A DNA stretch of 36,017 nt from a virus: IMG/VR virus record IMGVR_UViG_3300045988_158494; one strand, written 5' to 3'. Position 1 is the stretch's first letter, and every line of letters begins with the position of its first letter. This document shows positions 1 to 36,017 of the stretch, piece after piece. Under the pieces are notes generated by a model. It made no database searches, was not told the origin of the DNA, and saw only the letters and a program-made list of their open reading frames with translations. The position numbers were made by a program, and so were the translations under genes.

Positions 1-37
1 CCTGCTGCTTCAGTCGATCGGGCGGCCTGCTGCGGAT
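1..37. repeat. Terminal tandem repeat: one full 25-bp unit CCTGCTGCTTCAGTCGATCGGGCGG (1-25) plus a 12-nt diverging partial unit (26-37)
   Basis: Read directly. Bases 1-28 are identical to 35990-36017, so the window ends overlap inside the same array. Confidence 0.95.
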
Positions 38-125
38 TGTTCTAAAAGTCGGATTTTCTTGTAACGTATTGATACACAGGGAGTATAACAAAATCTTATC
101 GTCTGGTCGCTTGGTATAAAAAATC

Positions 126-426
126 TTCATATCCACAAAATTTACACAACTTATTGATTTACAGACTATTAATGTGGGATATGTAACTGCTTGAAAGCCA
201 GTCGAATAGTTTTTAAATTTTTTTATATACACACGTATATCGCTGAAAATCAATACGATGCCAAAAAGTGGGATATGAAAACGAGTTTTCGAAACTTTTC
301 CGGAAAATCGGCACTTTTCAAAAACGGTCATTTTCTCAAAAAAGTTTCGATTTTCATATCCCACCACCAACAAAAGGCGCGTAATGTGTTGAGAACGAGC
401 CAAAATAGGTCCGTTTCATATCCACA
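126..426. promoter_or_regulatory. Cluster of five 12-mer sites T(T/A)CATATCC(C)AC in both orientations (126-137 +, 174-185 -, 268-279 -, 353-364 +, 415-426 +); DnaA-box-like iterons
   Basis: Strings read on both strands. ATATCCACA at 129-137 and 418-426 matches 8 of 9 positions of the bacterial DnaA box TTATCCACA. Weaker variants lie at 565-575, 35792-35799 and 35815-35821. Confidence 0.55.
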
Positions 427-479
427 CCGCTGGGGGGAAATCGCGTAAAGGTTTGAAAATCAAATAGAAAAAAATTCAA

Positions 480-516
480 CTAAATGTCCTTTTTTTTGTT
501 CTAAATGTCCTTTTTT
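480..516 (+). repeat. Two copies of CTAAATGTCC followed by T-runs (480-497, 501-516); inverted copies GGACATTTAG at 724-733 and 836-845; degenerate copy at 631-640
   Basis: Exact 10-mers read on both strands inside an AT-rich tract. Confidence 0.8.
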
Positions 517-580
517 CACTTTTCATTTTGCAATCTGTTTAGTATCAATAATTTAGCCCCTTTTTTATCCCCACACTTAT

Positions 581-636
581 TTTTGACTAACCGCGTAAAT
601 AGCGGTAAATTAGTGTGTTACGCAGTTAGTCAAAAT
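581..636. repeat. 11-bp perfect inverted repeat TTTTGACTAAC / GTTAGTCAAAA with a 34-nt spacer
   Basis: Arms at 581-591 and 626-636 are exact reverse complements. Confidence 0.85.
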
Positions 637-670
637 GTCCTATTTTGGAACTCGATCGTACCTAAAAAGT

Positions 671-695
671 TAAGTTGCTGATAACCAGCAACTTA
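671..695. promoter_or_regulatory. Perfect 10-bp-arm palindrome TAAGTTGCTG-ATAAC-CAGCAACTTA (operator-like site or hairpin)
   Basis: Arms at 671-680 and 686-695 are exact complements. It is related to the site at 746-770 by a compensatory C:G to T:A change. Confidence 0.7.
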
Positions 696-722
696 TAATC
701 GGAATAGGCCGACCGGGTTATG

Positions 723-853
723 CGGACATTTAGAACATTTTTACATAAGTTGTTGAAACTCAACAACTTATCGACGTTCCACGTGGAGCAACTTATCGAC
801 GTTCCACGTGGAACACCACAATACCGGACATTTAGAACATTTTCCAGGCGCCC
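723..853. repeat. Composite repeat: the 19-bp direct repeat CGGACATTTAGAACATTTT (723-741, 835-853) flanks a 25-bp tandem duplication (764-787, 789-812) carrying CACGTG-centred palindromes
   Basis: CAACTTATCGACGTTCCACGTGGA occurs twice with period 25. GTTCCACGTGGAAC at 801-814 is a perfect 14-bp palindrome and TCCACGTGGA at 778-787 a perfect 10-bp one. A third TCCACGTG lies at 1299-1306. Confidence 0.9.
746..770. promoter_or_regulatory. Perfect 11-bp-arm palindrome TAAGTTGTTGA-AAC-TCAACAACTTA (second copy of the operator-like site)
   Basis: Arms at 746-756 and 760-770 are exact complements. Confidence 0.7.
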
Positions 854-901
854 CGATCTTGTCGCCGTTTCGGCGATTTTCGCCTGTTTTCTCGCTTTTC
901 G

Positions 902-943
902 GCGATCCGGCGGTTAGGGTAGGACGCCGATCCGCCGGATCGC
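902..943. repeat. 12-bp perfect inverted repeat GCGATCCGGCGG / CCGCCGGATCGC with an 18-nt spacer
   Basis: Arms at 902-913 and 932-943 are exact reverse complements. Confidence 0.85.
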
Positions 944-1005
944 GCGTCGCACCGAATAATTTCCCCGCTTCGGCCACAACGTGCAGACGAAACGGCGAAA
1001 AACGT

Positions 1006-1133
1006 TACCGCCGAAACGTTTTGCCGCCGAAACGCTTTACCGTCGTTTCGACGCATCGCCGAATAGACGAATAATCGAAACGTAACGAAAACGGGATAAA
1101 CGTTTAGTCGATTAGACGTTTCGGCGATTAATC
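1006..1133. repeat. Degenerate tandem array of about 16-bp period built around CGAAACG/CGTTTCG (about 8 units)
   Basis: Units such as TACCGCCGAAACGTTT, TGCCGCCGAAACGCTT and TACCGTCGTTTCGACG follow each other in register. The CGAAACG or CGTTTCG 7-mer occurs at 866, 988, 1012, 1028, 1044, 1076, 1117 and 1402. Confidence 0.5.
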
Positions 1134-1316
1134 GGAACTTTAGAACAAAATTTGCCGATTTTTCGAGGGGTAAACAGGGCGACGGGGCGACGGCACATAC
1201 CGACATCCGAGTCGCAGAAAAAAAAATTAAAATGGAAAAATTACGTTTGTAAAAATTTTTAATAACCGTTTGGGCGGCTCGCACCCCGACGACCCGCCTC
1301 CACGTGTGCCGTCTGC

Positions 1317-1342
1317 TCGATCGGCCGGGCCCTGCTGCGGAT
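1317..1342. repeat. Degenerate internal copy of the terminal-repeat junction (TCGATCGG-CCGGGC-CCTGCTGCGGAT versus TCGATCGG-GCGG-CCTGCTGCGGAT at 14-37)
   Basis: Direct comparison of the two strings. Together they bracket the 1.28-kb repeat-rich block. Confidence 0.75.
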
Positions 1343-1361
1343 CGACGACCCGGCGCCCCGC

Positions 1362-1381
1362 CTATATAAATATAGGTATGT
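1362..1381 (+). promoter_or_regulatory. Candidate promoter element CTATATAAATATAGGTATGT facing the + (virion) arm, 69 nt before the first + gene
   Basis: A near-identical element in the opposite orientation lies at 35913-35931. It overlaps the 16-bp palindrome CCTATAT-AA-ATATAGG (1361-1376). The following TATGTTTTG resembles, but does not exactly match, the Bacteroidota -7 box TAnnTTTG. Confidence 0.4.
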
Positions 1382-1449
1382 TTTGTTCATAGGCGTGCAG
1401 ACGAAACGGAGAAAAATTCCGTATATTTACACAAAGGAAAAGTGCGTAT

Positions 1450-1674
1450 ATGGAGAAAATCAAAGCCAAGCTAAATGCGCTTACACGGCTCGTTCTGTCC
1501 GGAACGTTAGACGAGGAGCAAAGGCGTGAGGTAAACGCGCAGCTAACTACGTTGAGAAACTTGATAGCTACGTGGAGAGCCTATGATGGCTACGAAGGTG
1601 AGATCGACCCCGACGCATTATCCGACGACAATACGACCAGACAGAAACGTACATCAAATGCGAAATGGGACTAA
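1450..1674 (+). CDS. Hypothetical 74-aa helical/charged protein; its position suggests a small terminase subunit
   Basis: ATG ORF and first gene of the + arm, overlapping the terminase start by 10 nt. No motif recognised. Confidence 0.5.
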   Translation: MEKIKAKLNALTRLVLSGTLDEEQRREVNAQLTTLRNLIATWRAYDGYEGEIDPDALSDDNTTRQKRTSNAKWD

Positions 1675-3092
1675 CGACTAAAATCAAACTGACCGTGAAG
1701 CAGGAACGCGCGGTTGATCTACTCGACGACGCGATCCATGACATCGAGCTGCTGCTCGGTGGTTCCGGTTCGGGAAAGTCGTTTGTCGAAGCGTACAAAG
1801 TTGTACGTGACACCCTTCGGTACTGCGCTCCGTCGTTGATCTGCCGTGACAAGTACGTGGACTTGCAACAAGGTATGATCGACCAAATTATCCCGGCGAT
1901 CCTCCAAGCGATCGCCGAGGCTAACGGGCATAACGGTAGCTGGACTACGTGGAAGATCGACGGGTTGAAGTTCGCCCAGTGGGGGGAAAAGAAAACGAAG
2001 CTGACGTTTTGTAACGGTGCTTATATACGTTTCGGTGGTCTTTCGAAACGTGATCTGTCCGAAAGTGGATCGGATAAGATTCTGTCCCCGTCATGGCTCC
2101 ACATTCTCGTGGAGGAGGTTTCCGAGTGCGAGTGGGACATCATCGAGTTGCTCATTACTCGATTACGTTTTCAAGTAAAGGGCGTGCTGAATAAGTTAAT
2201 GATGACGGAGAACCCGCCTTCGATCAATCACTGGTCGTATCGTCGTTTTTTCGAACACAAACGCGAGGATGGCTCTACGATGTCCGACGACGAGATAGCA
2301 AGGTATGCGTATCTCGAAATGCAACCGAAGGACAACGTGGAGAACCTCGGCGAAGCGTATATACGAAACCTGTCGCAGCTCTCCGGTGCGAACCGTGAAC
2401 GATTCTACGAAGGGCGATTCCAAGATACGGAGAGTGGTGACATCCTCAAACGTATTCAATGGACGGACAATCTCCCGAGATCGTTTGACTGGGACAAGTT
2501 GATAATTTACACGGACCCCACGCCGCTGACTGGCAAAGAGCACAGCATCTACGCGGACTACAAGGCGAGCGTTCTGTGCGGTCTGTTCGAAGGCGTAACG
2601 TACGTTCTCGACATACGTATGATCCGCGGATCGACGTTGGACCTGCTCAACAACATACGTCAGTTGTGGGACGCATCGCCTAACCAATCCATCACCGAGC
2701 TGTGGATGGAGAAAAAAGGTGTGCCGAGCGACTTTAACCAAGTCCTCGTACAGTTCGCGTCCATGACCGGGTGGTCGGTGCCGATCCAATGGGACACACG
2801 GGTGTTCGGTGACAAAAAAGCTGCAATCGAAACGTTCTTGCAGCCGCTGTTTGAGAACGACATGATCTTCTTTAACCAAGCGTTCAGAGACACGGAGCGA
2901 GGCCGACAGGCCCAGTTCCAAATCTTGAAGTTCTCGCGTAAGGCAAACAAGAACGTACACGACGACATCCCGGACGCAATCATGCGAGCCGATACCAAAA
3001 TGAAGGGTAAGCAGAAGCGAAAGCACATACGTAACGCACGTTTAGTTGCTTTCGTTAAGCCTGCCTATATTCACGACAAGGCAAATGGATAA
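1665..3092 (+). CDS. terL: Terminase large subunit
   Basis: 475 aa. Walker A is LLLGGSGSGKS and a Walker B-like motif is HILVEEVSE. The C-terminal RNaseH-type nuclease acidic motifs are IIYTDPT and VHDDIPDAIM. Confidence 0.85.
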   Translation: MGLTTKIKLTVKQERAVDLLDDAIHDIELLLGGSGSGKSFVEAYKVVRDTLRYCAPSLICRDKYVDLQQGMIDQIIPAILQAIAEANGHNGSWTTWKIDGLKFAQWGEKKTKLTFCNGAYIRFGGLSKRDLSESGSDKILSPSWLHILVEEVSECEWDIIELLITRLRFQVKGVLNKLMMTENPPSINHWSYRRFFEHKREDGSTMSDDEIARYAYLEMQPKDNVENLGEAYIRNLSQLSGANRERFYEGRFQDTESGDILKRIQWTDNLPRSFDWDKLIIYTDPTPLTGKEHSIYADYKASVLCGLFEGVTYVLDIRMIRGSTLDLLNNIRQLWDASPNQSITELWMEKKGVPSDFNQVLVQFASMTGWSVPIQWDTRVFGDKKAAIETFLQPLFENDMIFFNQAFRDTERGRQAQFQILKFSRKANKNVHDDIPDAIMRADTKMKGKQKRKHIRNARLVAFVKPAYIHDKANG

Positions 3093-7185: not shown

Positions 7186-7725
7186 ATGGTAGGATATTTA
7201 GGAGCCGCAGTAGCCGCGGCGTTGAGACAGTGGCCAGCGTTGAAGCAGGCAAACATATTTCCGACCCGGGCAGCGGAAGGCACGACCGTAGTGGTTGATA
7301 CGCCTTTACCTGCTATCGTAATACACGTAATAGGCACAGATGACCCGGAGGATGAAGGGGGAATAGCGTTCGGAGGTGGTATACGTTTCTATTTTAACCT
7401 CTTTATGTACGTTTTACTCCCAGTAACGAACGTATCGTACTCACCGGATGGCGGCAAACAGGCAGACCTGCTTGATATGTCAGAGGAGGTTGTACGTTGT
7501 ATCGAACAGACAGACATTCTCAACGAGGTTAAGCAGCAGCACGATCTCAATTTGCAGTTCGTTAATATGCCAACAGACACAACGTACGGAACGCGTGGGG
7601 CGGAGTCCGTTTTGGTCGACGTGCACAAGGTGAGCTACAAGGGGTCTGTAAGTTTTGATCCGAAAGACAAAAATAAGCTCGAAGCTACGCTCGAAAAAAT
7701 TATAATTAAACACGAGAACTCATGA
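7186..7725 (+). CDS. Neck/tail-completion-like protein (DUF3168-like by eye)
   Basis: 179 aa. The N-terminal pattern ALRQWPALKQANIFP...PLPAIVIHV is typical of tail terminator/completion families. Weak evidence. Confidence 0.45.
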   Translation: MVGYLGAAVAAALRQWPALKQANIFPTRAAEGTTVVVDTPLPAIVIHVIGTDDPEDEGGIAFGGGIRFYFNLFMYVLLPVTNVSYSPDGGKQADLLDMSEEVVRCIEQTDILNEVKQQHDLNLQFVNMPTDTTYGTRGAESVLVDVHKVSYKGSVSFDPKDKNKLEATLEKIIIKHENS

Positions 7726-9851
7726 GGGTATCAAAGAAAAGACAGGTCCTTACCACGGGCGCTGTCGACATGAACCGCAACGTTATACCGCCGGACGCTA
7801 TCGACTGGTCGCGTTTCGACGCTAATCCGTTGCTGCGCTACGACCGAGAGCACGAAGGCCACAAAGGTGTGGCCGTCGGCAAAGTTATCGAACGAGAACG
7901 TATCGGAGACGCGTTCGTTGGGCGTCTCGCTTTTATGGAGAGATTCGAAGACGCGGACATCGCGTTCGAGAAGTACGAGCAGGGGATCCTCCGTTACGTA
8001 TCAATCGGCGGATTCGCTCTCGGGCAGGAGAACGAGGACGGCATTTTCGTCGCAGACACGTACCTCGCTATGGAGGTTTCGCTCGTGGCACAGCCTGCCA
8101 ACATTGAATGCCGACCGATCGAGGACCGTGACGTAGAGTCGGAAGCCGATCGTGAGATCGTGGAAGGTATGCGCAAAGACGGTTGCGAGGTACGTTACCT
8201 TACGATGGGATTCTCCGAGACGGAATACAAACGTATCGAAGCCAGTCTCGAAGAGTCCGATCCGGAGCCGAACAACGATCCGGAGCCGAACAACGACCCG
8301 GAGCCGAACAACGACCCGGAGCCGAACAACGACCCGGAACCGAACAACGACCCGGAACCGAACAACGACCCGGAACCGAACAACGACCCGGAGCCGAACA
8401 ACGACCCGGAACCGAACAACGACCCGGAGCCGAACAACGACCCGGAGCCGAACAACGACCCGGAACCGAGGCCCGTTAATGCGGGTGTCGAGGACGACGA
8501 TGACGACACGCAAAAACACGGACGCCGACTGCCTAACGGCATGACGTGGCACGAACAACAGATTCTTAACCAAACAAAACCAATCAACATGGAAAAGACT
8601 TTCAGAGAGTTGAATTGCGACGCCGATTTTCAGAAGCGTTTGCACCAGCTCGGCGCGGCGTTCCGTACTGGCGCTACGGCCGCAGACAAAACCACGGAGA
8701 ACACCGAAACGGTGCGTATGCTCGCCTGCTCGATGCTGAACGACGAGCGTATGGTAACGCTCGCTTCGGCGGCGAACTTCACCAACGGGGTGACCCACGA
8801 ACGTAAAAACGGACTTCGCGTGCTCGTCGAGTGCGCCGCAGGCGGCGCAGCCGCTGGCACGCTGGCCGCTGCTGACCTCGGTGTCATCAAGTGGCTGTCG
8901 CTTTTCTACGAGAAGCTGCTCCCGAACAACACGTTCATGCGATCCGTACGTTTCGTTCCGATGTCGGACCGCGAGGGTGCCATCTACGTTGAGTCGGGTG
9001 TGAACCCCGCAACGTACGTCGGTTCTGTCACCCCGGTCAACGCTCCCCGCTACTTCTACGAGGACATCAAGCGGACGATCGCCCGGCAGGTGTTCTCCAT
9101 CCAGCCGATGACGTTCCAAAACGCGGAGCTTGCCATCCTTGCGTACGACAAGCAGTCGTGGGGTTGGACGATCGCTATGGATTCGCTCATGGCGAAGGTG
9201 GCTACGTTCATCCTTCAGGTGGCAGCGAACACCACAGGTGTGTCGAAGGTTCTCACCTCGGGTGAAACCGTCTCGTCGCAGGGCCTGTTCCCGATCGAGG
9301 CTCCGAGCTCGAACGTGAACATTAAGAAGCTCGCCCCGACCGACCTCGTGTACCTCGTCGGCCAGTTCCTCATGCAGAACTACGTGCTCGACAATCGCCG
9401 CGTGGAGGTCGTACTCCCGTCGCAGATTTACACGATGGCCGCTGCGAACAAGGACTTCCAAACCGTTCTTACCCGCGGGCTGTCCGGTGCGACTGGCTCC
9501 GGCTTCGAGTGGAACGGCATGAAGATCGGCCAGCGTAACCCCGTTGCACGTTACAACACCACGAGCAACAAGCCCGAGCTCGACCCGGCTATGTACGCCG
9601 ACTACTCCGTAGACGCTGACGGCAAACCCGAGGCCATCGACCCGGCCGTTACCGGCAAGAACACGGTTGGAGCAGGTGTTGCGTTCGTCGAGAACGAGAT
9701 CATCGCAGGTATCGGAACGATCGACGTGATCGTCATGCCGGACCCGACCAACTACGGATACACGTACTCGGGTTGGATGTCGGCAGGCGCAACCGTTGCC
9801 CGCGACGGCGGAAAGGGTGTCGCACTTGTCGTTCCCACTCTCGCCGAGTAA
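7722..9851 (+). CDS. Prohead protease (HK97 S78/U35 type) - repeat linker - major capsid protein, as a single 709-aa ORF
   Basis: The N-terminal protease motifs are YDREHEGHKGVAVGKV, LRYVSIGGFA and LAMEVSLVAQPANIEC. DPEPNN is repeated 11 times (8259-8456). The C-terminal region of about 420 aa has capsid-like size and composition. An in-frame internal ATG lies at 8589. Confidence 0.8.
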   Translation: MRVSKKRQVLTTGAVDMNRNVIPPDAIDWSRFDANPLLRYDREHEGHKGVAVGKVIERERIGDAFVGRLAFMERFEDADIAFEKYEQGILRYVSIGGFALGQENEDGIFVADTYLAMEVSLVAQPANIECRPIEDRDVESEADREIVEGMRKDGCEVRYLTMGFSETEYKRIEASLEESDPEPNNDPEPNNDPEPNNDPEPNNDPEPNNDPEPNNDPEPNNDPEPNNDPEPNNDPEPNNDPEPNNDPEPRPVNAGVEDDDDDTQKHGRRLPNGMTWHEQQILNQTKPINMEKTFRELNCDADFQKRLHQLGAAFRTGATAADKTTENTETVRMLACSMLNDERMVTLASAANFTNGVTHERKNGLRVLVECAAGGAAAGTLAAADLGVIKWLSLFYEKLLPNNTFMRSVRFVPMSDREGAIYVESGVNPATYVGSVTPVNAPRYFYEDIKRTIARQVFSIQPMTFQNAELAILAYDKQSWGWTIAMDSLMAKVATFILQVAANTTGVSKVLTSGETVSSQGLFPIEAPSSNVNIKKLAPTDLVYLVGQFLMQNYVLDNRRVEVVLPSQIYTMAAANKDFQTVLTRGLSGATGSGFEWNGMKIGQRNPVARYNTTSNKPELDPAMYADYSVDADGKPEAIDPAVTGKNTVGAGVAFVENEIIAGIGTIDVIVMPDPTNYGYTYSGWMSAGATVARDGGKGVALVVPTLAE
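8259..8474 (+). repeat. 18-bp tandem repeat GAYCCGGARCCGAACAAC x11 plus a partial 12th unit (encodes DPEPNN)
   Basis: Units were counted directly. All differences between units are synonymous (GAT/GAC, GAG/GAA). Confidence 0.95.
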
Positions 9852-9910: not shown

Positions 9911-10432
9911 ATGGCAGCACCCAAATTCAACATCAAACAGATCGCGGGCATTGCGACGCAGGTTCGTCGCTACAAGACGCTCCACGTAACGACGGAAGGC
10001 GTCATGTTCCGCACCAAGCGGGCAGCCGAGGAGGCTGTACGTACCCGAAACATGATCTTTGAGGACGCAACGCAGTTTGTGGCCATCAAGGAGATCACCG
10101 AGAGCGACGTAACGAACGAAAAGCTCCGTTCGTACGCGAAGGACCTCGACGCGTTCAACAAGCTCTTCGAGAACGCGTACGTTCCGGTACAGAAGGGAAA
10201 GAAGGCGGCCGAAAAGAAGGACGAGGGCCCCGCACCGATCTCGAAATCCGAGGAGGACGAGATCATGGCCGCGCTCAAAGGGGAGGCCGACGCGCAGCCC
10301 GAAGCCGCAAAGACGGAGGCCGACGCGCAGCCCGAAGCCGCAAAGACGGAGGCCGACGCGCAGCCCGAAGCCGCAAAGACGGAGGCCGACGCGCAGCCCG
10401 CAAAGGAAAACAAAAACCCGTTCAAAAAGTAA
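9911..10432 (+). CDS. Hypothetical 173-aa protein with a C-terminal EADAQPEAAKT repeat (decoration or scaffold-like?)
   Basis: ATG ORF between the capsid and sheath genes, with a charged, low-complexity C-terminus. Confidence 0.6.
   Translation: MAAPKFNIKQIAGIATQVRRYKTLHVTTEGVMFRTKRAAEEAVRTRNMIFEDATQFVAIKEITESDVTNEKLRSYAKDLDAFNKLFENAYVPVQKGKKAAEKKDEGPAPISKSEEDEIMAALKGEADAQPEAAKTEADAQPEAAKTEADAQPEAAKTEADAQPAKENKNPFKK
10282..10400 (+). repeat. 33-bp perfect tandem repeat x3 plus a 20-nt partial unit (GGAGGCCGACGCGCAGCCCGAAGCCGCAAAGAC)
   Basis: Units at 10282-10314, 10315-10347 and 10348-10380 are identical. Confidence 0.95.
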
Positions 10433-24206: not shown

Positions 24207-24693
24207 TAGGTTTCGATTTTAAATCCAGCTCCCTACGAACAACTTTCGTACGTAAATTATACACCGTCCTCTCCGCAACTTTGAGTTTTTCGGATATGCA
24301 AGACGGGGACCCACCTTGCAGCAACAGGCACTCTACGGCGAGACGTATGCACCCTCTCTCCGTACACGGATATACCGAGACCCAAAAATCCCGGGACCCG
24401 AAGTTCTCCGACAAAACGTGTATCACCTCCTCGGATGATTTGTGTATCTTTGCTTCCGGCAACCTATAATAGGCGTATTTTATTACGTGCGATGGGACCT
24501 TCTCCGTTAGTAAAAGTCTTACTGTTTCGAGCTGACTTGTAATAGTCTCGTCCTTGTCGTTGGTTCTCACTATGCGTTTAAGCGCCCAAGAGAATAACCT
24601 CAAGCCGGAGTATGGCGCTAAACGCGTTATGGCCTTGTCGTCAAGTCCAAATTTCCGGCTCTCCTTTAGTATCAAATCCGTCGTAGTCATCAA
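24175..24693 (-). CDS. HTH DNA-binding protein, sigma-70 region 4 / LuxR-like C-terminus
   Basis: LLLQGGSPSCISEKLKVAERTVYNLRTKV fits a region-4-type helix-turn-helix. At 172 aa it has the size of an ECF sigma factor, but region 2 was not recognised. Confidence 0.5.
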   Translation of the reverse strand: MMTTTDLILKESRKFGLDDKAITRLAPYSGLRLFSWALKRIVRTNDKDETITSQLETVRLLLTEKVPSHVIKYAYYRLPEAKIHKSSEEVIHVLSENFGSRDFWVSVYPCTERGCIRLAVECLLLQGGSPSCISEKLKVAERTVYNLRTKVVRRELDLKSKPNDTQHIRESV

Positions 24694-27028
24694 TAGTATT
24701 TTTTAATTCCTTTGGTACCCTTCTACGTATCCAAGCTACACACGATCCGTACTCACCGAATCGTCGGTTAGCTGCTGTTTGGTCAAAAAGCTGCGTCCTA
24801 CGTATCGCGTCAGCCACCTTTCGGCCTATCGTCGGGGTCATATCTTTACGTTCGTATTCATAGAACTCCCGCGCCACTTCAGTAGTACATACGTATTGAC
24901 GAGGAGTTCCCGACCACACGTCTCGTGAGTTCAACCAGTATTGCTTGTGCTCGAACGTACTCATCTTATACCAATCAACAGGAACAGGCATATTAAGATA
25001 GTCGATCAACGCTCCGAGCTCGGAATCCTCCGCTTTGTGGACCGTTCTAAACTGACGGGCCTCCGCCTCAGCGGCATCCGACAATACGGGTAGCACACCT
25101 TGCAAATAGTAATGAACCGCTTCGGCCCAGTACTGGTCTACAAGATCGAGAAACGCTTCCGAATGAACGTCTATCTTTACGCGCTCCTTGTTGCAGATCA
25201 TACCCCACCAACGTCGGCCATCCTCCGACGGGTCGTCGAGGAACACCACGTCGTTCGACGAGGCGATAAATACGCACTGACGTTTGTACGTCTTTGTGTA
25301 TTTAAGGTAAGCCGCACGATATCGGTCCTCCCCTTTGGTGACGAACGCTTTTCGGCTGTTCGTGCTTTTGCTCTGCACTCCGTTCAACTCGGGGATCTCC
25401 ATGATCCACACACCCCGTAACTGCTCGTAAGCCTCCTTGCTACCGTTGAACGTATAGAAAGTATCGGACCCCCAAAGTTTGGCCATACGTCGGATAAACT
25501 TCGATTTACCGAAACCCTCCTCCGAAACGAGAACAGGTATGTAGTCCATCTTCGAGGCAGGTATGAACACACGTCGAACCGCACCTGTGAAAAACTTCTT
25601 TCCCACCTCGCGCGTGTATAGCGTATTTGGTACCCCGAAACAATCTATGAAGATCGTTTCGAGACGCTTCACCCCGTCCCATTTGAGAGAGTTGAGATAG
25701 TCACGTACAGGATGGAACGCGTTCTCGTGCTCTACGATGTTAAGGGCGTCCGTGAGGACCGCACGTGCGTCAAAGCCGTACTTATCCTCGAAATAGAGTC
25801 GTAGGTAGCTTTCGTCCGTGTCGGTCATTTCGTCGTACGTTTGGATGTTTCGGCAGTCCTCGTTCTCCGTCCGAATATCAAAGGTGCGCCACGACGGCGT
25901 ACGCTTCAATACGGGCATTTCGCTGAACAGATCGTACGCAAAGATGTCCCGCAGCTCCGGGTCATACTTCAAGATCAACTGTGCGTTTTTGAGAGTCTTT
26001 TCGAGGTTTCCTTTGCTGTCCACCTCCAAACGTTCGTTGAGTATGGCTTTAGCCTCCTCGTCGTCCATCCCGTCGATGGTAAGACGGTGAACCTTTCCGC
26101 TATCCGCACGTATGCCGAGGCTTTCACACAACGACGCCATAGCCGCCTCGCCCTGCTTACCCTCGCCGAATTTATATAAACGTACGGCGTCATACGCGTT
26201 ATGACACCGACCGAGGTACGGGTCGGAGGAGTGATTCGAATAAAGATATTTGTCCTCGTATATCACACCGCCTCCTACGGTCGTAGCGCCTATAAGCGTG
26301 TACCTTCCGTTTCTCTCTTTTCTCCATACGTCCTGTAAGTACGTTTCGATTGCTTCTCGGATCGAGACCTTCGCGCAGAACGCACCTACCAAACCACCTT
26401 TGTACTTCGGGTCCTGCACCCGTACCTTCTCCGGTACAGGTACGTCGGACAGGTCCTGCCAGTTGTCGAGCTGCTCCAACAGCGGGGTTACGTCGAGTTC
26501 CTCCCCGGTCTCGTACTCGAAAAAATACTCTGCGTCCTTCGGGATAGACGGGAGGAACATGATACGATTGAAGTCAAACGTCGAGACGTCGAGAGGGAGT
26601 TTGAACTTGTCGTGCAATACACGCATAATCGCTCCGTACTCGTCAGCGAGCACAATACGATTCAACGGAACGACGACCCGGTATCTCGGGTCATCCGGCG
26701 TGGAACTGTGCGTACTATGTATAACGTACGACTTACCCGCAAGCCAGTCTCGTAGTGCTTTTAGCGTACCCTCCGCTGCCTCGTCGATGTCAATGACGAG
26801 CAACTGACGATACGTAACTTTTCTCTTCACGCACAAGCCTCCGATGAAAAAGCCAACGTCTTTGACGTCGACCTTTTGCGATTTGCTCATTTGGGCGTAT
26901 TGTGCCATCGTCTCGTCGGTCCTCGTTACGTTCTTTAGACGCTGAACGATCTCCTCCCATTCGAGACGATACTGTTTTGTTGTCGTCTGTGATCGTTTGA
27001 CCCCAAACGCAATGTCGTAAACACTCAT
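24641..27028 (-). CDS. Primase-helicase: N-terminal primase-polymerase-like domain plus a VirE/D5-type P-loop NTPase
   Basis: 795 aa. The DxD motif is LLVIDIDEA, followed by VIHSTHSS and DFNRIMFLPS. Walker A is SEEGFGKSKF and a Walker B-like motif is CVFIASSND. Confidence 0.8.
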   Translation of the reverse strand: MSVYDIAFGVKRSQTTTKQYRLEWEEIVQRLKNVTRTDETMAQYAQMSKSQKVDVKDVGFFIGGLCVKRKVTYRQLLVIDIDEAAEGTLKALRDWLAGKSYVIHSTHSSTPDDPRYRVVVPLNRIVLADEYGAIMRVLHDKFKLPLDVSTFDFNRIMFLPSIPKDAEYFFEYETGEELDVTPLLEQLDNWQDLSDVPVPEKVRVQDPKYKGGLVGAFCAKVSIREAIETYLQDVWRKERNGRYTLIGATTVGGGVIYEDKYLYSNHSSDPYLGRCHNAYDAVRLYKFGEGKQGEAAMASLCESLGIRADSGKVHRLTIDGMDDEEAKAILNERLEVDSKGNLEKTLKNAQLILKYDPELRDIFAYDLFSEMPVLKRTPSWRTFDIRTENEDCRNIQTYDEMTDTDESYLRLYFEDKYGFDARAVLTDALNIVEHENAFHPVRDYLNSLKWDGVKRLETIFIDCFGVPNTLYTREVGKKFFTGAVRRVFIPASKMDYIPVLVSEEGFGKSKFIRRMAKLWGSDTFYTFNGSKEAYEQLRGVWIMEIPELNGVQSKSTNSRKAFVTKGEDRYRAAYLKYTKTYKRQCVFIASSNDVVFLDDPSEDGRRWWGMICNKERVKIDVHSEAFLDLVDQYWAEAVHYYLQGVLPVLSDAAEAEARQFRTVHKAEDSELGALIDYLNMPVPVDWYKMSTFEHKQYWLNSRDVWSGTPRQYVCTTEVAREFYEYERKDMTPTIGRKVADAIRRTQLFDQTAANRRFGEYGSCVAWIRRRVPKELKNTIDDYDGFDTKGEPEIWT

Positions 27029-34772: not shown

Positions 34773-34868
34773 TATTTTACAGTTTTTCCCGGACCAACGG
34801 CGGCCCGGCTTTTCGCGCCCCGTGCCCGGCATGATCGGGCCGCCCGCCTAAAGCGGGAAACGGGGCAA

Positions 34869-34928
34869 ATTTCGCCGATCGGATCGGCGGTGCGTACCTT
34901 TGTACGTTTCCGATCCGATCGGCGAAAT
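34869..34928. repeat. 60-nt near-perfect palindrome: 19-bp arms ATTTCGCCGATCGGATCGG / CCGATCCGATCGGCGAAAT with an inner 5-bp hairpin CGTAC-CTTT-GTACG
   Basis: Arms at 34869-34887 and 34910-34928 are exact reverse complements. Each arm carries two GATC sites. Confidence 0.9.
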
Positions 34929-34937
34929 ATATACGGG

Positions 34938-34965
34938 AAAAGCCGCCCTTTTCGGGGCGGCTTTT
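34938..34965 (-). terminator. Intrinsic terminator after the 34986-35579 gene
   Basis: AAAAGCCGCCC (34938-34948) pairs with GGGCGGCTTTT (34955-34965). On the - strand the GC stem is followed by a U-run, 21 nt after the stop codon. Confidence 0.8.
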
Positions 34966-34985
34966 CGGCGGTACGTTTGCCCGGC

Positions 34986-35579
34986 TTACATTTTGTCCGG
35001 ATCGAGGCCCGCGGCGATAAGCATCGCGCGCAAACGTTCGTTTTCCGACAGCGCGGCGGCAGCCTTGAATTCGGCGGCGGCTACCTTTGCCGACAACGTT
35101 TCCCGGGCGGCCTTCTCGGGCAGTTCGTACGCCTCAACGTCGGCGGCGGCCTTTTCGAGTTCGGCGGCGGCGGCCCCCTTTTCGGCTTCGAGCGCGGCCA
35201 GTTCGGCTCGGGCTTCGTCGATCTTTTTGTCCAGTTTGGCGGCGTCCGCTTCTGCGGACATGATACGGGCGGCGGCCCGCTTGATCGACATTTCGGCGGC
35301 CAGCGCGTCGGTCATACTTTCGATGTCGGCGTCGGCTACCACAAGCCGAGACACCTTTTCCGTTCCGTCGTCCTGCGTTTGCAGAACGGCTCGGAAGAAG
35401 TTCCCAGTACGCTTTTCGAAGTTGAGGCCCTTCTCGGACAGGTGCGGCAGTTTCGCACGGAGCACGGCGGCGGCCTTTTTCTCCAGCGGCGACAGTTCGC
35501 GCGCGGGCTCTTCGGCGGTTGCGACGGCCTCAACGGCGGCGGTTTCAACGGTTTCGGGGTTGTTCAGAACGTTTTTCAT
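34986..35579 (-). CDS. Ala/Glu-rich coiled-coil protein (197 aa), first gene of the early arm, function unknown
   Basis: ATG ORF with a GC3-rich coding signature, which produces long shadow ORFs on the + strand. It appears to form its own transcription unit between element copy 3 and a terminator. Confidence 0.65.
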   Translation of the reverse strand: MKNVLNNPETVETAAVEAVATAEEPARELSPLEKKAAAVLRAKLPHLSEKGLNFEKRTGNFFRAVLQTQDDGTEKVSRLVVADADIESMTDALAAEMSIKRAAARIMSAEADAAKLDKKIDEARAELAALEAEKGAAAAELEKAAADVEAYELPEKAARETLSAKVAAAEFKAAAALSENERLRAMLIAAGLDPDKM

Positions 35580-35632
35580 GATGCGTAAATGTTTAGTTAG
35601 TTAATAAGTGAATTACACGCGTTTTGCGTTTG

Positions 35633-35680
35633 TGCCGCCGCCGGGAGCGACCCGGGCAAACGCTTAACGTTTCGGCGGCA
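35633..35680 (-). promoter_or_regulatory. Structured element copy 3 (same nested-hairpin architecture with different stem sequences), 53 nt upstream of the ATG at 35579
   Basis: The outer 8-bp stem pairs TGCCGCCG (35633-35640) with CGGCGGCA (35673-35680). The inner stem-loop is CCGGG-AGCGA-CCCGG (35641-35655). A 17-nt bulge contains ACGTTT. Confidence 0.55.
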
Positions 35681-35912
35681 GACCTATTTTATTTTGCGAG
35701 TGCAACTCGCAAAACCGCTTTACAAAGGTTCGAACGATCGACGGGCTCGAATCCGTCTATTCGGCAAGAGCTTTCATACGTAGTTATTGCGTTCATATCT
35801 TAAAAATTTTTAATATATCCCGTTCGGACCTGTTCCGAACTCCTTCTGGGGGTAAAATTACAAAAACGTTTCGAGACGTGCAAGTTTTTCGACCACTTTT
35901 TTGCAAAAATTT

Positions 35913-35931
35913 ACATACCTATTATATATAG
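35913..35931 (-). promoter_or_regulatory. Candidate promoter element (reverse complement CTATATATAATAGGTATGT) facing the - (early) arm
   Basis: It is a near-identical inverted copy of 1362-1381. On the - strand it is followed by TAAATTTTTG, which is loosely like TAnnTTTG. Confidence 0.4.
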
Positions 35932-35939
35932 CCCCCGGG

Positions 35940-36017
35940 CCTGCTGCTTCAGTCGATCGGGCGGCCTGCTGCTTCAGTCGATCGGGCGGCCTGCTGCTTC
36001 AGTCGATCGGGCGGCCT
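35940..36017. repeat. Three perfect head-to-tail copies of the 25-bp unit (35940-35964, 35965-35989, 35990-36014) plus CCT
   Basis: Counted base by base. The array continues into the unit at 1-25 when the ends are overlapped. Confidence 0.95.

Follow-up and report, generated by a model that had tools for sequence, protein, structure and literature searches.

What does a long gene-free interval do in an otherwise tightly packed phage genome? The window analysed here, the whole 36,017-nt stretch of IMG/VR record IMGVR_UViG_3300045988_158494, is a complete, circularly assembled phage genome (~36 kb) from the human gut, and its two divergent gene arms part at a single gap. This gap would separate a minus arm for early functions and replication from a plus arm for terminase and structural proteins. 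It is very probably cis-acting non-coding DNA, neither a gene nor a large RNA, and it is probably a composite DNA control region, in which a replication origin would be combined with divergent promoters and possibly with a packaging site. Replication start, DNA packaging and the early-to-late switch are almost uncharacterised in gut Bacteroidota phages; a literature search for a described replication origin in Bacteroides phages gave nothing relevant, and 'Alistipes phage' received passing mentions only. This kind of element is known as such, and the interest of the present one lies chiefly in its iteron array, its conserved block and the lack of a studied origin in this phage group.

The gap lies across the junction of the circular genome. 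The window ends share a 28-nt overlap inside a 25-nt tandem array, and because an independent contig, L008, reads across the junction without interruption, 35580-36017 and 1-1449 form a single continuous stretch. When genes are taken as open reading frames (ORFs) of at least 50 amino acids (aa) on the strand of their own arm, these two segments are the largest uncovered stretches of the genome, as the original prediction had stated; the next is 153 nt long (34833-34985), and the remainder is 98% coding. The prediction had regarded about 1.85 kb as empty. This holds for 1-1449, which is gene-free, but not for 35580-35797, which contains a 35-aa ORF and a structured intercistronic RNA segment. 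The true gene-free gap runs from 35798 across the junction to 1449 (~1.64 kb).

Sequence symmetry is concentrated in the gap. Perfect inverted repeats (stem of at least 9, loop of at most 40) are enriched 9-fold, at 3.7 versus 0.41 per kb, with 7 of the 21 in the genome falling in this 5% of it. The six perfect dyads reported earlier all exist, and five of them have arms of 11 bp (581-591/625-635), 10 bp (671-680/686-695), 12 bp (745-756/760-771), 12 bp (902-913/932-943) and 7 bp (1361-1376); the right arm of the first, given as 626-636, was shifted by 1 nt, and 776-814, rather than a single continuous dyad, is a pair of 12-nt arms made by a 25-nt tandem duplication, with the palindrome TTCCACGTGGAA in each copy. 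The hairpins at 35692-35714 (10-bp arms) and 35822-35840 (7-bp arms) are present as described. The direct-repeat families that had been noted are likewise real: several direct and inverted families occur in 4-5 copies here and are absent from the other 34 kb, the 8-10-mers TGTTCTAAA, CTAAATGTCC and CCACGTGGA being examples, and ATATCCCAC occurs in 3 copies here and in none elsewhere. An imperfect palindrome of ~100 nt at 266-366 and the most informative repeat families had been missed.

The gap also lies at the minimum of the cumulative GC skew, between the replication module (PolA, primase-helicase, single-stranded DNA-binding protein (SSB) and helicase) and the terminase genes. Origin-like repeats, an AT-rich core, promoters at both edges, this position and an evolutionary pattern like that of the lactococcal c2-type origin thus point to an origin and control region, one of the two readings that the original prediction had left side by side. 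We infer from these features that the gap would act as double-stranded DNA with many protein-binding sites, that replication would start here and that its conserved block would serve as a recognition or control site.

All 15 relatives that cover this position (designated by L numbers here) have a gap of 1.3-2.4 kb there; their terminase large subunit (TerL) is 65-100% identical, and the gap occupies 4-6% of a densely packed genome in each of them. Its sequence, however, is conserved only within clades. Mean column identity in the clade of the window is 95% over 29-900, whereas blastn detects no similarity of the gap between clades, and 1-1449 has no blastn match among 50,697 phage records, including none to the c2, bIL67 or 923 ori. 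Variable columns make up 0 of 49 in 29-78 and ~6% in 79-378, compared with ~12% at third codon positions of TerL. Whole units of 25-58 nt are inserted or deleted between genomes whose TerL is 97% identical at the nucleotide level and 98-100% identical at the protein level.

Three features recur across clades. One is an iteron of ~20 bp with the extended consensus CTGAnWATCARnnnGTTA, in which CTG is conserved 5' of the search-pattern core WATCA[AG]NNNNTT[AG], and this core is the classical IHF consensus. Strict copies number 19 in the gap of L032, 14 in those of L022 and L033, 10-12 in those of L003, L019, L020 and L046, and 4 in the window clade, with an expectation of ~0.2 per gap and 0-1 copies in ~10 kb of flanks. 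The second is a tandem array, which is present throughout the family with a unit that differs from clade to clade (a CGAAACG 16-mer, the 8-mer CGTATCGA in at least 13 copies, a 15-mer or a unit of ~60 nt). The third is a conserved block of ~55 nt just downstream of this array, which nearly every clade has as a single copy located 350-880 nt upstream of TerL. The iteron motif, the 55-nt block and the tandem arrays are concrete, clonable candidates for an origin, a packaging signal and promoters.

The protein that binds the iterons could be a host IHF-like bending protein or, equally, a conserved phage protein. Because E. coli IHF can substitute for a Bacteroides host factor (PMC2034462), an IHF-like bender exists in the Bacteroidota phylum. 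Among the proteins covered by the Pfam and PHROGs scans there was no phage-encoded HU or IHF; the hints of DNA binding in these scans were a weak helix-turn-helix (HTH) match in a 172-aa protein and a 'DNA binding protein' PHROG for a 152-aa protein.

The left two-thirds of the gap (about 38-860) would be the probable origin, with an AT-rich unwinding core, DnaA-box-like 9-mers, iterons and a 14-mer that switches orientation; about 8 copies of the family-wide iteron would lie here. The 4 strict iterons of the window (0.24 expected in the gap, 1 found in the other 34 kb) are at 62-74, 147-159 and 671-683 on the minus strand and at 543-555 on the plus strand, and looser copies are at 243-263, 454-470 and 752-771. 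Two of the dyads, TAAGTTGCTGATAACCAGCAACTTA at 671-695 and ATAAGTTGTTGAAACTCAACAACTTAT at 745-771, are long-stem versions of the same iteron in hairpin form, built from the CAACTTAT motif, which has five to six copies including 146-157. In L008 both hairpin iterons retain their stems with varying loops; L013 and L008 each show one non-compensated arm change, and the right hairpin iteron (745-771) is half deleted in L001. The adjoining 25-nt tandem duplication of CAACTTATCGACGTTCCACGTGGAG (two plus-strand copies at 764-813, identified by Tandem Repeats Finder (TRF), each with the 12-nt palindrome mentioned above) is entirely missing from L001, and since both copies share their substitutions in L008 and L013, they appear to change in concert.

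DnaA-box-like 9-mers of the family (T)TCATATCC(C)AC are located at 126-137, 351-364 and 414-426 on the plus strand and at 174-183 and 268-281 on the minus strand, and a further one, TTATCCCCA, at 565-573. With one mismatch or fewer, TTATCCACA is found 3 times in the gap versus 5 times in the other 34 kb (12-fold, binomial p = 0.004), never exactly. The three ATATCCCAC variants add to the DnaA-box-like sites, although the motif is not conserved in other clades, and GGATATGAA has 4 copies in the gap and 1 elsewhere. Two of the 9-mers, inverted with respect to each other, form the outer arms of the imperfect palindrome at 266-366 (inverted repeats I2 and I19), which has only spurious matches to microRNA precursors in Rfam. 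In three of four relatives (L010, L013 and L008) the substitution C348A disrupts its inner 11-bp arms (289-299/340-350), and the fold itself is thus not maintained. The AT-rich tract, placed by the original prediction at about 430-700, has its core at 441-540, with a GC content of 0.23-0.25 in 60-nt windows. This core, a candidate DNA-unwinding element, has two copies of CTAAATGTCCTTTTTT at a distance of 21 nt, and DnaA-box-like sites lie on both sides of it (418-426 and 565-573). To its right, the dyad formed by TTTTGACTAACCGCGTAA and TTACGCAGTTAGTCAAAA at 581-635 has 11 perfect base pairs and can be extended to 18; the pair T596/A620 is C/G in L013 and L008 and passes through an intermediate C/A in L001.

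The 14-mer belongs to a clade-specific family of 14-19-mers, GGACATTTAGAACA, with members at 38-55 (minus strand), 480-495, 496-516, 631-646, 723-741, 825-843 and 1133-1151. Its 5-6 copies have one orientation to the left of ~650 and the opposite one to the right. The iterons of L032 (3040-4020) form a higher-order unit of ~75 nt from two iteron subtypes and the motif CGGGAAGAT, and this motif likewise reverses its orientation between the left and the right half, mirroring the switch in the window. For the 14-19-mer family, TGTTCTAAA has 5 copies in the gap, and it is conserved in L010, L013, L001 and L008.

The right third begins with a block at 860-1130 that is a GC-rich, hypervariable array of tandem iterons. 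It contains 16-nt repeats of the CGCCGAAACG type (1000-1042 and 1100-1130) and the dyad 902-913/932-943, in which L010 shows one compensated change (C907T with G938A). Variability is the highest in the gap (20-42% variable columns, a range given for 929-1178). Repeat units have been gained or lost in L001, L010, L012, L014 and L015, and the 16-nt CGAAACG repeats range from ~2 to 6 copies among relatives. Many contigs terminate in this block or in its equivalent. A 23-nt direct repeat, CGTGCAGACGAAACGG(C/A)GAAAAA (family D7, plus strand, 96% identical, conserved in close relatives), has one copy here at 980-1002 and another at 1394-1416, directly upstream of the -7 box of the plus arm. In L014 a copy of the promoter-proximal segment (CCGCCTATATAAATATAGGTATG...GACGAAACG) is found inside the iteron block (129-220), probably through misassembly at the 23-nt repeat, or else through a real duplication.

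The family-wide conserved block follows at 1171-1265 on the plus strand. It reads (GG)YAAACAGG-CGGC...ACCGAC...A-run, is succeeded by the A/T palindrome TAAAAATTTTTAATAA (1250-1265), and lies ~250 nt upstream of the terminase operon in the window. Block and palindrome together are a candidate site for packaging recognition or late control. By eye, stems in L003 and L040 seemed compensated, as an RNA hairpin would require, but RNAalifold gives no consensus structure for the block and the z-scores of single-sequence folds (+0.7 to -2.1) are unremarkable; it is treated here as a DNA site. The A-run behind it ranges from ~6 to 34 A among relatives (as seen at L021), either a hypervariable homopolymer or an assembly artefact. 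Between the block and the plus-arm promoter, GC-rich variable repeats (CCGCCTCCACGTGTGCC..., families D8, D12 and D15) fill 1275-1360, where the terminal part of the 25-nt array (TCGATCGGCCGG..CCTGCTGCGGAT) recurs at 1317-1342. Their units are duplicated or lost in L001, L010, L011, L014 and L015, and the GC-rich unit at 1280-1330 is duplicated among near-identical relatives.

Both edges of the gap would carry outward-facing promoters of the Bacteroidota type, each beside one copy of an imperfect inverted repeat of ~22 nt that brackets the whole gap. Local alignment of the reverse complement of 35860-35945 with 1330-1435 places the left copy (reverse complement CTATATATAATAGGTATGT) at 35912-35933 and its partner at 1362-1381. 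On the right, the plus-arm promoter region (1362-1429, plus strand) combines this repeat copy, which includes the palindrome CCTATATAAATATAGG, with the second 23-nt repeat and the -7 box TATATTTA at 1422-1429, 21 nt before the ATG at 1450; the TATATTT(G/A) box aligns in all clades and is near-invariant. On the left, the minus-arm promoter and 5' leader (35798-35935, minus strand) contain the outward-facing -7-like box TAATTTTA at 35853-35860, found by a scan for Bacteroidota promoters, the AT palindrome TAAAAATTTTTAAT at 35801-35815 and the leader hairpin at 35822-35840. The stem of this hairpin is preserved through multiple two-arm changes in L007 and L008, and L013 has a different hairpin instead. 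In L010 the promoter segment directly abuts the gene of the 197-aa protein. Relatives bear textbook Bacteroidota promoters of the form TTTG-N19-21-TAnnTTTG; a custom scan for TTTG/TAnnTTTG found near-consensus boxes only and no full consensus promoter in the gap of the window. Scans for sigma-70 promoters and terminators gave counts equal to the shuffle expectation, the sigma-70 model being the wrong one for Bacteroidota.

Next to the left promoter, the 25-nt array CCTGCTGCTTCAGTCGATCGGGCGG extends on the plus strand from 35938 to 36017 and on into 1-37 (TRF: 3.2 copies, 100%). After removal of the 28-nt assembly overlap it comprises ~3 full copies and a partial one, and a single related copy of the unit lies at 1313-1342. 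The array has at least 3 copies in the window, 1 in L001, L013 and L008, and 0 in L010. Three contigs break in it. More than 20 contigs among L009-L049, including the near-full-length L012, L024, L035 and L045, end 250-800 nt upstream of TerL. As physical termini these ends were rejected, most of them lying inside tandem repeats (CGTATCGA, TTCGACGTTTCGGCGA or CGACGTTTTATGTAC, each repeated) or carrying remnants of Nextera adapters; untrimmed Nextera transposase adapter (AGATGTGTATAAGAGACAG) stands at the start of both L025 and L029 (1-50) in public assemblies. The arrays are thus break points of metagenomic assemblies, which explains the truncated contigs and warns against calling such ends termini.

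Could the gap nevertheless encode a product? Unrecognised small protein genes have one real remnant in their favour, the 35-aa ORF at 35693-35797, and variable minus-strand genes at the left edge of L003 and L032. Within 1-1449, however, there are 16-25 stops in all three frames of both strands, no ORF has a Pfam match, and reassigning stops under alternative genetic codes opens no credible ORF. In relatives, frame-breaking indels of 8, 25 and 34 nt interrupt the longest ORF (832-1284, minus strand); they are part of a set of 8-, 25-, 34-, 55- and 58-nt indels between near-identical genomes. The 83 variable columns of 29-760 in five close relatives are distributed over the three phases as 31/30/22 (p = 0.41), with no 3-nt periodicity, whereas 59 of 64 variable sites in the TerL control are at third codon positions. 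Small genes are extremely improbable as an explanation of the gap. The other reading of the original prediction was a large structured non-coding RNA in the size class of GOLLD and ROOL, with the dyads as its stems. The interval is indeed long, ORF-free and rich in hairpins, among them terminator-like ones at 671-695 (minus strand) and 872-884 (plus strand), and the stem pairs 596/620 and 907/938 are compensated. Nonetheless, Rfam 15, whose library includes GOLLD, ROOL and other large RNAs, has no match in the whole window at the gathering score, and at E <= 10 only spurious microRNA and small-RNA matches, far below threshold, appear in 1-1500 and 35400-36017. In RNAalifold on 29-900, with the limited power that five close relatives give, the covariation term is positive (+3.9), and only 4 of 251 pairs are compensated while many are broken. 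A handful of local dyads (596/620, 907/938 and the leader hairpin at 35822-35840) have compensated changes, a pattern that symmetric protein sites equally predict. The long dyads are all perfect Watson-Crick palindromes without G-U pairs, as DNA sites predict, and motifs in both orientations are typical of DNA sites. The broken palindrome at 266-366, the missing similarity between clades and the repeat units that come and go between genomes with nearly identical TerL likewise speak against such an RNA, which we consider very improbable. An ORF-free interval with hairpins in a phage genome is insufficient to call a large non-coding RNA.

A smaller transcript deserves more weight. Because the c2-type system makes a short untranslated ori transcript, PE1-T (PMC7150918), a small RNA inside the gap is possible; it would prime or open the origin, and the candidate runs on the plus strand from ~585 to a hairpin at 872-894. 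A -7-like box, TATTTTTG, at 578 precedes the 581-635 hairpin with its compensated pair 596/620, and the terminator-like hairpin GGCGATTTTCGCC with its T-run at 872-894 is conserved in all five close relatives. The TA of the 578 box, however, is TG in L010 and L013, no -33 TTTG lies at the right distance, and terminator-like sites number 2 against 2.6 expected by shuffle, so that this transcript appears unlikely. Somewhat less doubtful, yet still improbable, is the proposal that the right third (about 860-1360) serves chiefly for packaging, with the conserved block and the tandem arrays as a pac or cos region for the downstream terminase. Terminase-binding regions, for example lambda cosB and P1 pac, typically contain repeat arrays and bending sites, the only sequence conserved in all clades lies upstream of a TerL of the Terminase_3/6N type and beside tandem arrays, and the assemblies of several relatives are circular and open at arbitrary points, as headful packaging from a pac site would allow. 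On the other side, no recognisable small terminase was identified, the 74-aa protein encoded before TerL having neither an HTH nor a family match; contig ends are not piled at one nucleotide but fall inside tandem arrays, where assembly failure explains them; and TerL has no sequence match in the PDB to a solved terminase that would type the packaging mechanism. The bracketing inverted repeat also raises the idea of an invertible, phase-variable promoter cassette flipped between 35912-35933 and 1362-1381, since repeat-flanked invertible promoters are common in Bacteroidota. All spanning relatives (L010, L013, L001, L008 and the distant clades), however, have the gap in one orientation relative to the flanking genes, and on this ground the cassette was rejected; no recombinase was found among the proteins scanned, and the 8-mer TAGGTATG of the repeat recurs four more times elsewhere in the genome. 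We regard it as scarcely credible. A CRISPR array was also rejected, since the repeats are either head-to-tail tandems or dispersed in both orientations and show no repeat-spacer periodicity.

Several points weigh against the origin and control reading itself. Origin function is deduced from architecture and position only, and the GC skew is inseparable from gene orientation, since transcription of both arms leads away from the gap. None of the DnaA-like boxes is perfect, and other motifs take their place in other clades (e.g., TTGCCCAC in L003). No initiator gene adjoins the gap; its neighbours encode the 197-aa protein on one side and the 74-aa protein with TerL on the other. L002 and L050 have 0-1 strict iterons. 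Across much of 380-1180 the rate of evolution is close to the synonymous one, and part of the gap may therefore be only loosely constrained. Finally, the compensated changes in 581-635, 902-943 and 35822-35840 fit transcript hairpins equally well. The control-region reading nevertheless accommodates the repeats, the AT-rich core, the edge promoters, the position and the evolutionary pattern. A bolder form of it, which we put forward tentatively and consider rather unlikely, is an undescribed type of Bacteroidota phage origin. This would be a 'super-iteron' region of 1.3-2.4 kb, in which up to ~20 hairpin motifs of ~20 bp resembling the IHF consensus recruit either a conserved phage protein or a host bender of the HU/IHF family. 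In concert with DnaA-like boxes and a tandem array that evolves fast, these motifs would assemble the primase-helicase of the phage, and a priming transcript like that of c2, produced within the region, might take part.

The segment left of the gap has a history of its own. The 35-aa ORF (MNAITTYESSCRIDGFEPVDRSNLCKAVLRVALAK, 35693-35797, minus strand) is an in-frame 45-codon (135-nt) deletion derivative of an 80-aa accessory gene. This gene is intact in L007 (175-417, plus strand) and L032 (2527-2769, minus strand), has the same N- and C-termini as the remnant, and is present as a frameshifted copy in L008. The dyad at 35692-35714 overlies the last codons and the stop of the remnant. Between it and the gene of the 197-aa protein, the intercistronic segment (35580-35692, minus strand) has a GC-rich multi-stem fold: the minus-strand RNA of 35585-35720 folds at -47.8 kcal/mol (z = -3.8) into a hairpin and a Y-shaped GC-rich structure. 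This RNA may be a terminator, an attenuator or an RNA-stability element. By eye, three differences in L032 would each give G-U pairs in the minus-strand RNA. The segment shares 85% identity with L032 2463-2592, against just 69% for TerL; this contrast suggests a recent horizontal exchange followed by decay. Because the entire cassette is shared with the distant L032 but missing from L010 and L013, it behaves as a moron-like insertion. Other relatives have variable small minus-strand genes at this edge (97-aa in L003; 80-, 124- and 145-aa in L032). The gap of L004 (1600-2150) contains a perfect Bacteroidota promoter (TTTG...TATATTTG) in triplicate, the copies being near-identical, and two of them drive small minus-strand genes; the left edge is thus a hotspot for small cassettes of a promoter plus a gene.

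The genes around the gap give the phage a broad placement. The plus arm begins with a conserved 74-aa coiled-coil-like protein (1450-1674, plus strand), which has no PDB match and whose gene overlaps that of TerL (1665-3092, plus strand); the start genes at 1450-3092 are assigned to PHROG 979, PHROG 2 and Pfam Terminase_3/6N. The minus arm encodes an SbcC-like ATPase, a Gp2.5-like SSB, PolA, a large VirE/D5-type primase-helicase (24641-27028, ~9 kb from the gap) and a helicase. The gene nearest the gap, which is the first conserved gene of this arm, encodes the 197-aa protein, whose function is unassigned. No partition genes were recognised, and a scan for tRNA and tmRNA found none. PolA and the primase-helicase are at most 36% identical to those of any deposited phage, with no close cultured relative, and almost all relatives come from human-gut metagenomes. 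The host is probably a member of the Bacteroidota such as Alistipes. The only hints are the binning of an entire relative, L050 (contig JAZOPR010000016.1, 38.5 kb), in a metagenome-assembled genome of Alistipes sp., the promoter type and a GC content of ~51%. Tandem repeats also occur within genes of the plus arm. At 8258-8469 on the plus strand, an 18-nt repeat with 96% matches runs for 11.8 copies and specifies (DPEPNN)x12 in a large 709-aa ORF of the structural module (7722-9851). A perfect 33-nt repeat at 10282-10400 (plus strand, 3.6 copies) encodes (EADAQPEAAKT)x3.6 at the C-terminus of a 173-aa ORF (9911-10432), and its 100% identity suggests a recent expansion.

Several known systems share parts of this architecture. 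Theta origins such as P1 oriR, pSC101 and R6K combine iteron arrays with AT-rich DNA, DnaA boxes and IHF-type bending. The gap likewise has ~20-bp repeats arrayed in both orientations and in variable copy number, together with DnaA-box-like sites, an AT-rich segment and a bending motif of the IHF type. Unlike these origins, it has no adjacent Rep-type initiator and no recognised partition genes in its genome, its DnaA boxes are imperfect, and the phage itself encodes PolA, a primase-helicase and an SSB. The primase-helicases of P4 (ori/crr) and of SaPI recognise short iterons flanking AT-rich DNA, and the present phage also encodes a large VirE/D5-type primase-helicase. Its repeats, however, lie ~9 kb from that gene rather than inside or adjacent to it, and their motif is unrelated to the P4 and SaPI iterons. 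Like lambda cosB with its IHF site and P1 pac, the gap is located directly upstream of the terminase operon and contains repeats, IHF-consensus-like sites and a GC-rich conserved block, but no small terminase was identified and the repeat arrays exceed 1 kb, far beyond known cos and pac sites. The likeness to GOLLD and ROOL is limited to size class and association with phage genomes; the gap has no covariance-model match, conserved fold or cross-clade conservation, and whole repeat units are inserted and deleted in it.

The closest experimentally grounded analogue is the ori region of the lactococcal c2-type phages (Ceduovirus), of which the gap is an analogue and not a member. In Ceduovirus, a non-coding ori region lies between divergent early and late blocks and supports plasmid replication; it is more than 90% conserved within ori types and has no similarity between types (PMC7150918). 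The function of that region is experimentally proven, and the gap would function analogously. The two share no sequence homology, and the gap is ~3 times longer, has up to 19 family-wide iterons and a hypervariable tandem array, and differs in host phylum and promoter type. Both, however, are non-coding regions between divergent early and late modules, with repeats, AT-rich DNA and flanking promoters, and both combine high identity within a type with none between types.

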